This document shows positions 9,814 to 10,584 of a stretch of 12,933 bases of DNA, piece after piece. Numbering within the stretch: the stretch's first letter is position 1; each line of letters opens with the position of its first letter. The stretch is from Bdellovibrionia bacterium (GTDB lineage Bacteria; Bdellovibrionota; UBA1018). Both the position numbers and the translations under genes were made by a program. The notes below the pieces were generated by a model. That model saw only the letters and a program-made list of their open reading frames with translations. It was not told the DNA's origin and did no database searches. The stretch covers positions 1 through 12,933 of the forward strand of contig JBMSSC010000079.1 in assembly GCA_049424145.1 (NCBI GenBank), read 5' to 3'.

Positions 9814-10584
9814 CTACTGAGCCGCTTTGTAATTGTTATAAAGCTGATTGAGTCTCTGCATTTCCTCAGTGGCAGTGTTAGAGCGATTTCTGTCGGGGTG
9901 GCGAGACAGAGCTTCTCTTCTGTACCTTGAAGTAATTTCTTCATCGGTCGCACCCTCTGGGTTGATTCCTAATTCTCTGCATAATTCGTTTTTCGCTCTC
10001 AACTTCTCCTCGGGGCTCATAGGCCGTCTTATCGATTCTTCTGCATCACCGCTTGTGTCGTCTAAAATTTCAATCTTTCCTGATTTATTGTGGCAAAATT
10101 GAATTGCACCAGCAGTCGTAACTGGAGCTCTAAAAAAGTATTTTATAGTAGATTCCATTGAGCCAACTATTAAGGAGAAAAAAGATTTTCCAATTATATC
10201 CTGTTTCTTAGTTTCAGTGCATATGGCTATTACTTCTTTTCTATCGCATTTTTTAATTTCAGAAAAATTAAAGCCATTGGATTTGCACCATTCAGGATTC
10301 GGAGATTTAGCCAGAAACTGAGTAGGCTTAAAAAGGTTAATCTTGTACTCATCTTCAAAGCAAAGTCCATTTACAGGGATGTCGCAGCTACCAAAAAAAT
10401 CTGAATACTCTTTATTGGACGATGAATTATGGTCGTATTCATGAATACCTTCTGATCTCTTCACTGGATTTCCGTTACTCGGCTTTTCAACTGAACTGGT
10501 TTGATGACTTGGTCCACAAGCCGCAAGAATCGCAGAAATAAGAGAAGCAGAAGAAAAATGCTTTATTCTTAATTTTATATACAT
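9814..10584 (-). CDS. Predicted lipoprotein with a six-cysteine domain and a C-terminal DnaJ (J) domain
   Basis: Basic N-region and lipobox ILAA-C23. Cys at residues 67, 75, 100, 113, 122 and 164. The C-terminal ELGINPEGATDEEITSRYRREALSRHPDRN...EEMQRLNQLY is a J-domain with an intact HPD. Confidence 0.85.
   Translation of the reverse strand: MYIKLRIKHFSSASLISAILAACGPSHQTSSVEKPSNGNPVKRSEGIHEYDHNSSSNKEYSDFFGSCDIPVNGLCFEDEYKINLFKPTQFLAKSPNPEWCKSNGFNFSEIKKCDRKEVIAICTETKKQDIIGKSFFSLIVGSMESTIKYFFRAPVTTAGAIQFCHNKSGKIEILDDTSGDAEESIRRPMSPEEKLRAKNELCRELGINPEGATDEEITSRYRREALSRHPDRNRSNTATEEMQRLNQLYNNYKAAQ

Follow-up and report, generated by a model that had tools for sequence, protein, structure and literature searches.

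We describe a protein of 256 residues (P0001), encoded on the minus strand at positions 9814..10584 of the window, i.e. of the whole stretch of 12,933 nucleotides analysed here, in which a predicted lipoprotein signal peptide is combined with an intact J-domain. We suggest, at a probability of roughly 0.6, that P0001 is a class C J-domain lipoprotein that likely receives a lipid, is exported and reaches a eukaryotic host, probably a protist, whose cytosolic Hsp70 it would recruit; its export, its host and its client are what we infer here. To our knowledge, J-domain proteins of bacteria are generally treated as cytoplasmic, and an exported form with a lipid anchor, found repeatedly with different middle domains, would offer a simple and testable case of Hsp70 hijacking without a needle.

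Results

The ATG of the P0001 gene is the first codon past an in-frame stop, so that upstream extension is excluded, and a purine-rich ribosome site precedes it. The GC content of the gene is 0.39 compared with a mean of 0.49 for the window's genome (2.69 Mb, completeness 95%), in which a value of 0.39 or below is found for 13 of the 1741 longer genes. A contig from one sequencing run, which may be the source sample, covers the locus (9378-10800) with zero differences, and the same holds for the start plus lipobox (10371-10587) and for the region of the HPD motif (9763-9939) in contigs of two further studies. One variant contig (depth 2) exhibits a synonymous change of the Asp codon of the HPD motif, with residue changes at the adjacent positions 236 and 237. 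Searches for tRNA genes and Rfam families near the gene returned none.

The initial annotation had proposed an exported lipoprotein, and the features on which it relied can be located as follows: (i) a predicted signal peptide comprising residues 1-22 (10519..10584, minus strand), with a basic N-region and a Ser-rich hydrophobic stretch, as derived from sequence and hydropathy; (ii) the lipobox L-A-A-C with Gly at +2, at the end of which Cys23 (10516..10518) is the predicted lipid attachment site; and (iii) a Ser/Asn-rich tether of residues 24-62 (10399..10515), predicted to be disordered (pLDDT about 30). A transmembrane helix between signal and J-domain, which that annotation had likewise not seen, is lacking, the top hydropathy over 19 residues being 0.94. 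Signal peptides and lipoboxes were assigned throughout by sequence rule or judged by eye, and export is thus a rule-based prediction; by this rule, which 81 of the 1974 called genes of the genome match, P0001 is likely a lipoprotein of the Sec/SPII type, and signal peptidase II (LspA) is encoded in the genome. The hydrophobic stretch is on the weak side, with a mean hydropathy of 1.72 for the 12 residues before Cys versus 2.01-2.03 for three other lipoproteins. The lipobox is probably more than a chance match, because the two closest complete J-domain relatives, from other genera, also carry one. If the predicted localisation holds, the J-domain would be unable to serve the cell's own DnaK.

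The J-domain forms the very end of P0001. Together with a lead-in helix it comprises residues 191-256 (9817..10014, minus strand; helices I-III), as indicated by Pfam, PDB sequence matches, a structural model and a predicted complex with DnaK. The intact motif claimed in the initial annotation was recovered: PF00226 matches residues 205-250 (E 1.4e-8; 35.2 bits against a cut-off of 27.8), and HPD is located at residues 229-231 (9892..9900). Helix II contains four Lys/Arg residues, and the domain stops after helix III, devoid of helix IV. PF00226 is the sole Pfam match at E values up to 1, and P0001, which has no G/F region, zinc finger or DnaJ_C domain, is a class C J-domain protein. Of the four PF00226 matches in the genome, the other three are DnaJ, HscB and a J/HTH protein without HPD. 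For residues 186-256 together with E. coli DnaK and ATP, complex prediction yielded a value of 0.71 versus 0.00 for the best control (of 78 solved pairs, 51 attain the mark set for such predictions, as do 2 of 108 mismatched ones); at least 96% of the contacts are shared between runs, the pLDDT of the partners is at least 85, and the J-domain occupies its canonical place on DnaK with His229, Pro230 and Asp231 all in the interface. Because a like complex has already been solved (5NRO), this model indicates likeness and an intact surface only and not which Hsp70 is bound, and as a bacterial DnaK was used it allows no choice between types of host.

Between tether and J-domain lies an orphan domain (residues 63-182; 10039..10398, minus strand) with Cys67, Cys75, Cys100, Cys113, Cys122 and Cys164, in agreement with the six-Cys domain originally described; a further residue, Cys202, belongs to the J-domain. 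Six Cys suggest disulfide bridges, which the cytosol would reduce. P0001 is a singleton cluster in the protein search. Credible relatives of the middle domain were found neither in 5.8 billion proteins, nor in the Atlas, nor in 401 genomes of the phylum (two weak matches, E 0.002 and 0.004), and for residues 1-195 none emerged among 1.84 billion representatives, the five matches being repeat-rich or short. Two single-sequence models of low confidence (pLDDT 53 and 42) both suggest a β-meander around residues 105-155. Foldseek with the low-confidence model returned J-domains alone, and a VIA fold search gave a best Z-score of 4.8 and zero chains at 5 or above, which allows no fold assignment. 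This domain is a candidate for the part that binds a client.

Across 60 genomes of the family, PF00226 has 278 matches, of which 150 were listed; 59 of the genomes were then listed in full. We examined 60 matches whose length and score set them apart from the standard types, plus further loci. The combination of lipobox and J-domain recurs in two other genera of this Bdellovibrionia family, with the middle exchanged: a lipoprotein of 324 residues in G029 (L006, P0012) combines an unrelated helical middle with a C-terminal HPD J-domain 42-46% identical to that of P0001, and one of 193-200 residues in G062 (L037, P0016) has an unrelated Gly/Ser/Tyr-rich middle before a related C-terminal HPD J-domain. 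All three complete lipoproteins retain HPD and 4-5 basic residues in helix II. A fourth related protein, in G061, has HPN instead of HPD, and its N-terminus is cut by the end of a contig. The J-domains of these four cluster weakly (SH-aLRT 82), and the tree does not resolve their origin, as the lipoprotein group stands beside DjlA-type domains and one from Symbiodinium. Outside the family, no lipoprotein of this kind was found among the best 80 of 446 genome loci or the 120 of 543 proteins listed. The G029 gene lies directly 3' of a tRNA-Pro (L035:2546-2623) in a stretch of low GC content, resembling an island insertion.

Fifteen further proteins from 12 genomes, 11 of this family and one of a sister family, combine a cleavable-type signal (by eye) with a J-domain (L007, L014, L016-L021, L026, L030, L031, L065, L069, L080, L086). 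They belong to relatives with larger genomes, and HPD is kept in 14 of the 15, the remaining one having HPK. A lone Cys with hydrophobic residues after it is present near the C-terminus in nine of them (L007, L016, L017, L018, L019, L021, L030, L031, L080) and just after the signal in L026, L065 and L069; this element, found in otherwise unrelated exported proteins and absent from the lipoprotein forms, is possibly a tag for export or anchoring. The other J loci examined are DjlA-like, short proteins with a transmembrane helix and a J-domain, CbpA, HscB and J/HTH proteins and a coiled-coil J type seen repeatedly, while a few were left unclassified. The J/HTH protein, encoded behind a MinD/FlhG-like ATPase in the window's genome (L002:1444-2373, contig C5) and in most relatives, joins a conserved J-domain that lacks HPD to an HTH at the C-terminus. 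A partial orphan (L145:3-716, in G105), its N-terminus cut by a contig end, contains a J-like domain with HTD.

In quick single-gene trees of DnaJ, the carriers of the lipoprotein form fall into one clade (SH-aLRT 98 with 27 rows; 83 with 45 rows, 12 of them clade genomes), outside which all 12 carriers of the cleavable-signal forms are placed in the 45-row tree. The presence of the lipoprotein-type gene within the clade is patchy, as it was seen in only 4 of the 12 genomes. F-box-like matches occur in 10 of the 60 family genomes, 7 of these being among the 11 clade genomes searched; one of the three outside the clade (G019) proved spurious on inspection. At E 1e-4, and with fewer candidates scored per genome, such matches are found in 2 of 301 genomes of the phylum, both from this family. 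These counts are by genome, and since kin are not independent no statistical test was applied. The F-box proteins examined have signal peptides (by eye) and include forms with leucine-rich repeats (LRR) or ankyrin repeats; those of the window's genome are encoded on contigs C10, C11, C113, C131, C162, C165 and C166 (L125, L128, L130, L132-L135), and the other carriers are G029, G062, G061, G020, G021, G005, G026 and G089. The window's genome also has 18 strong ankyrin matches, ranking second of the 60, and all nine ankyrin open reading frames displayed start with a signal peptide. Ankyrin-type (9) and F-box-type (7) proteins are its two largest signal-bearing families. F-boxes work through eukaryotic SCF ligases, as described in the part of PMC11338181 consulted, and an export repertoire of F-box and ankyrin proteins is, in the parts used here of that source and of PMC4378268, the profile of eukaryote-associated bacteria. 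The initial annotation had left prey and host cells as alternative targets: the signal-bearing F-box, F-box/LRR and F-box/ankyrin proteins favour a eukaryotic host, with bacterial prey being less favoured. This uncultured clade is, judging from its gene content, probably eukaryote-associated. ATP/ADP translocase and U-box matches were found in none of the five genomes searched, though the controls were blank too.

Ranking of PDB matches points in the same direction. With a profile of the lipoprotein J-domains, 14 eukaryotic entries come first (54.9-45.0 bits), followed by Thermus DnaJ2 (44.9 bits) and E. coli DnaJ (41.4 bits), and eukaryotic cytosolic entries also rank first for each of the three complete domains alone. 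A control profile from six J-domains of the cleavable-signal group places eight bacterial entries first, with bacterial DnaJ on top. The margin of the eukaryote-first ranking is about 4-14 bits over about 45 residues. Among the 120 proteins listed for the lipoprotein profile, most of the named matches are DNAJA/B of eukaryotes, and some are DjlA.

As to a route out of the cell, the window's genome encodes a type II secretion cluster, and its four secretin genes belong, judged from their neighbours, to type II, to a PilQ-like type IV pilus and to two Tad-like contexts. Near its C-terminus, the match to the type II secretin falls into two reading frames, both in this genome (C17:8341-8831) and in G090 (C55:12578-13046); if the gene is truly broken, the type II route would be weakened. 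A search for a type III injectisome in this 95% complete genome gave one match to the FlhA/SctV family only and no second FlhA. Lipoproteins can be exported by type II secretion. The full-length Hsp70s of the five genomes tested are of the DnaK and HscA types, none of the ten N-termini displayed carries a signal peptide, and no free Hsp70 substrate-binding domain was found in the window's genome. We had considered either as a partner of P0001 and rejected both, as neither was found. The proposal of an exported J-domain put forward in the initial annotation is thus strengthened by the recurring architecture, by the lack of a signal-bearing Hsp70 among the proteins inspected and by the retention of HPD with four basic residues in helix II, with export itself remaining a prediction.

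Upstream of the gene, a consensus scan revealed a box, TGGCA-N6-TTGC, 60 nt before the ATG (10630..10644, minus strand), which we take to be of sigma-54 type from the -24/-12 consensus as known to us. It is the one match in the window against 0.08 expected, with 14 of 200 shuffles reaching one. The genome encodes rpoN and contains 20 strict boxes; 13 genes have a box at the right spacing versus 3-7 at wrong spacings. The gene that opens the type II cluster (C17:10664-11842) has a box 33 nt upstream, and others precede several small exported proteins. In an automated enrichment test, signal-peptide genes made up 4 of the 13 genes behind a box versus 427 of 1961 (p 0.5). Strict boxes were absent before all 17 F-box/ankyrin genes displayed (one loose match each in two) and within 300 nt of 12 exported J genes of relatives, and shared sigma-54 control of either group was rejected on these counts. 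A sigma-70 scan gave no site.

Discussion

Several known systems invite comparison with P0001. HopI1 of Pseudomonas syringae is a type III effector with a C-terminal J-domain which, according to the part of PMC8150971 consulted, binds, stimulates and relocalises eukaryotic Hsp70. Like HopI1, P0001 is a bacterial protein ending in a J-domain. HopI1 is, however, injected by type III secretion, whereas P0001 has a Sec lipoprotein signal and its genome a single gene of the FlhA family; in the search of 1.84 billion representatives, no credible relative of residues 1-195 was seen. DjlA, like P0001 as predicted here, is a class C protein that has a membrane anchor and, at the C-terminus, a J-domain devoid of helix IV, but it comprises a transmembrane helix and a TerB domain, while P0001 has no TerB match and no transmembrane helix and carries a lipobox instead. 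The anchor of DjlA holds its J-domain in the cytoplasm. P0001 is thus not a DjlA, and it is probably no member of the HopI1 family either; from the J-domain tree, DjlA may possibly have been the source of its J-domain. By analogy, P0001 likely works like HopI1 but through another route. Class C J-domain proteins through which parasites exploit the Hsp70 of their host provide a further parallel: phage RB43 Rki is such a protein (PMC3486835, in the part used here), and Rki, SV40 T antigen and exported J proteins of Plasmodium are described as hijacking host Hsp70 in the sections of PMC13254874 consulted. These proteins, however, are synthesised within the host or leave the parasite through PEXEL, and none is a bacterial lipoprotein.

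Babela massiliensis, an amoeba parasite of the Dependentiae, has five non-canonical J proteins (PMC4378268 and its supplementary file 9, as far as consulted, also for what follows), four of which (BAB00345, BAB00685, BAB00710 and BAB00711) are given a SignalP score above 0. Its genome likewise encodes many ankyrin proteins with signal peptides, and type II is its only secretion system. In contrast to P0001, the Babela proteins have cleavable-type N-termini rather than lipoboxes (by eye) and mostly N-terminal J-domains, they come from another phylum, and the tentative link drawn for them is with cell division rather than with host Hsp70. Because J proteins with signal peptides are already in print there for an amoeba parasite, as rows of an annotation table, the general idea is less new, and a eukaryotic host for P0001 gains support. 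The cases of exported or host-directed J-domains in the parts of reviews searched are only viral, from Plasmodium, or HopI1; PMC2797640 mentions, in the part consulted, two canonical dnaJ genes only, and in the main text of PMC10410713, as far as searched, 'signal peptide', 'periplasm' and 'lipoprotein' never occur. Full-text searches, evaluated by titles and abstract openings, gave no report of exported J-domain lipoproteins or of Bdellovibrionota bearing F-boxes; the principal inventory of J proteins in bacteria (Barriot et al. 2020, J Mol Biol) may already include signal-bearing forms.

The mechanism we propose would begin with Sec export and processing by Lgt and LspA at Cys23. The lipoprotein would then be displayed on the surface or released, most likely via type II secretion, whose leading gene is preceded by a sigma-54 box of this kind too, or on outer-membrane vesicles. 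Having met the host cytosol, P0001 would stimulate the ATPase of host Hsp70 in an HPD-dependent manner, and the variable middle domain would pick the client or the site, as is thought for the non-J parts of HopI1, SV40 T antigen and Rki. For an anchored lipoprotein to come into contact with host Hsp70, the bacterium would have to reside in the cytosol or shed the protein. How an anchored and probably disulfide-bonded protein would reach the cytosol is one weak link of this mechanism, and another is that the host is read from the genome only. The weak hydrophobic stretch, the small margin of the PDB ranking, HPN in G061 and the presence of the gene in 4 of 12 clade genomes likewise argue against it.

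Delivery of the lipoprotein to bacterial prey, with prey DnaK as the target much as phage Rki acts in E. coli, appears unlikely to us. The family is that of the Bdellovibrionia, the secretins of Tad and type IV pili kept in the genome are compatible with predation on bacteria, the modelled J-domain docks on E. coli DnaK (a textbook pair), and Rki (PMC3486835, in part) is a precedent; yet the carriers of the lipoprotein form belong to the F-box-bearing clade, and their J-domains rank eukaryotic entries first. A prey target would better fit the cleavable-signal group, with its 15 proteins in 12 relatives outside the clade and the bacterial-like profile of six of them. It is rather improbable that P0001 stays on the surface or in the periplasm with an Hsp70-independent role for its J-domain, such as adhesion or protein binding, and HPD as a relic: six Cys would suit an oxidising compartment, a lipid anchor would keep the protein on the bacterium, and the G061 relative has HPN and one cleavable-signal protein HPK, but the three complete lipoproteins keep HPD and 4-5 basic residues in helix II despite unrelated middles, and the Asp codon change in the variant contig (one contig, depth 2) is synonymous.

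That P0001 is not exported, or is also made in a shorter cytoplasmic form, and works with the cell's own DnaK would accord with the weak hydrophobic stretch and with internal Met codons; we consider this very unlikely, given that the lipobox recurs with a related J-domain in two other genera, that ribosome site and sigma-54 box precede the first ATG, and that no transmembrane helix would hold the J-domain inside. Least probable is a recently acquired orphan of low GC content without a selected function, as might be concluded from the value of 0.39, the singleton cluster, the dispersed repeats beside the 3' end and the patchy presence in the clade, since the frame is intact in contigs of three studies where covered, a resident sigma-54-type box precedes the gene, and the architecture is repeated in related genera.

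Returning to the eukaryotic host as the preferred target of P0001, it is tempting to speculate, with considerable doubt, that the small-genome Bdellovibrionia clade turned to eukaryotes with modular lipid-anchored J effectors (signal, exchangeable targeting domain and eukaryote-like J-domain), which leave through Sec and type II secretion and aim host Hsp70 at chosen targets, and that the bacterial-type J proteins exported by its relatives with larger genomes are directed at prey DnaK. For the at least 15 further signal-peptide J proteins in 12 relatives, the target may be either prey DnaK or host Hsp70; if the speculation is true, the split between small and large genomes would mean that a single family hijacks the chaperones of two kingdoms.

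Finally, some neighbouring features of the window deserve mention. The intergenic segment 9282-9763, beside the 3' end of the P0001 gene, contains pieces repeated across the genome (contigs C13, C111, C133 and C8) at 75-85% identity, and parts of it are matched also by other contigs in the sequencing runs. From their translations, and with names as we know them, we take 2539-5792 to contain genes resembling ResB and CcsA, from system II of cytochrome c biogenesis, followed at 6871-9219 by what is presumably a UvrD-type helicase. The neighbouring gene at 11132-12742 (minus strand) encodes a further lipoprotein, with an IPT/TIG domain, a Pro-rich linker and a C-terminal part without assignment; its close paralog, located at C7:40349-42271, contains two TIG domains.
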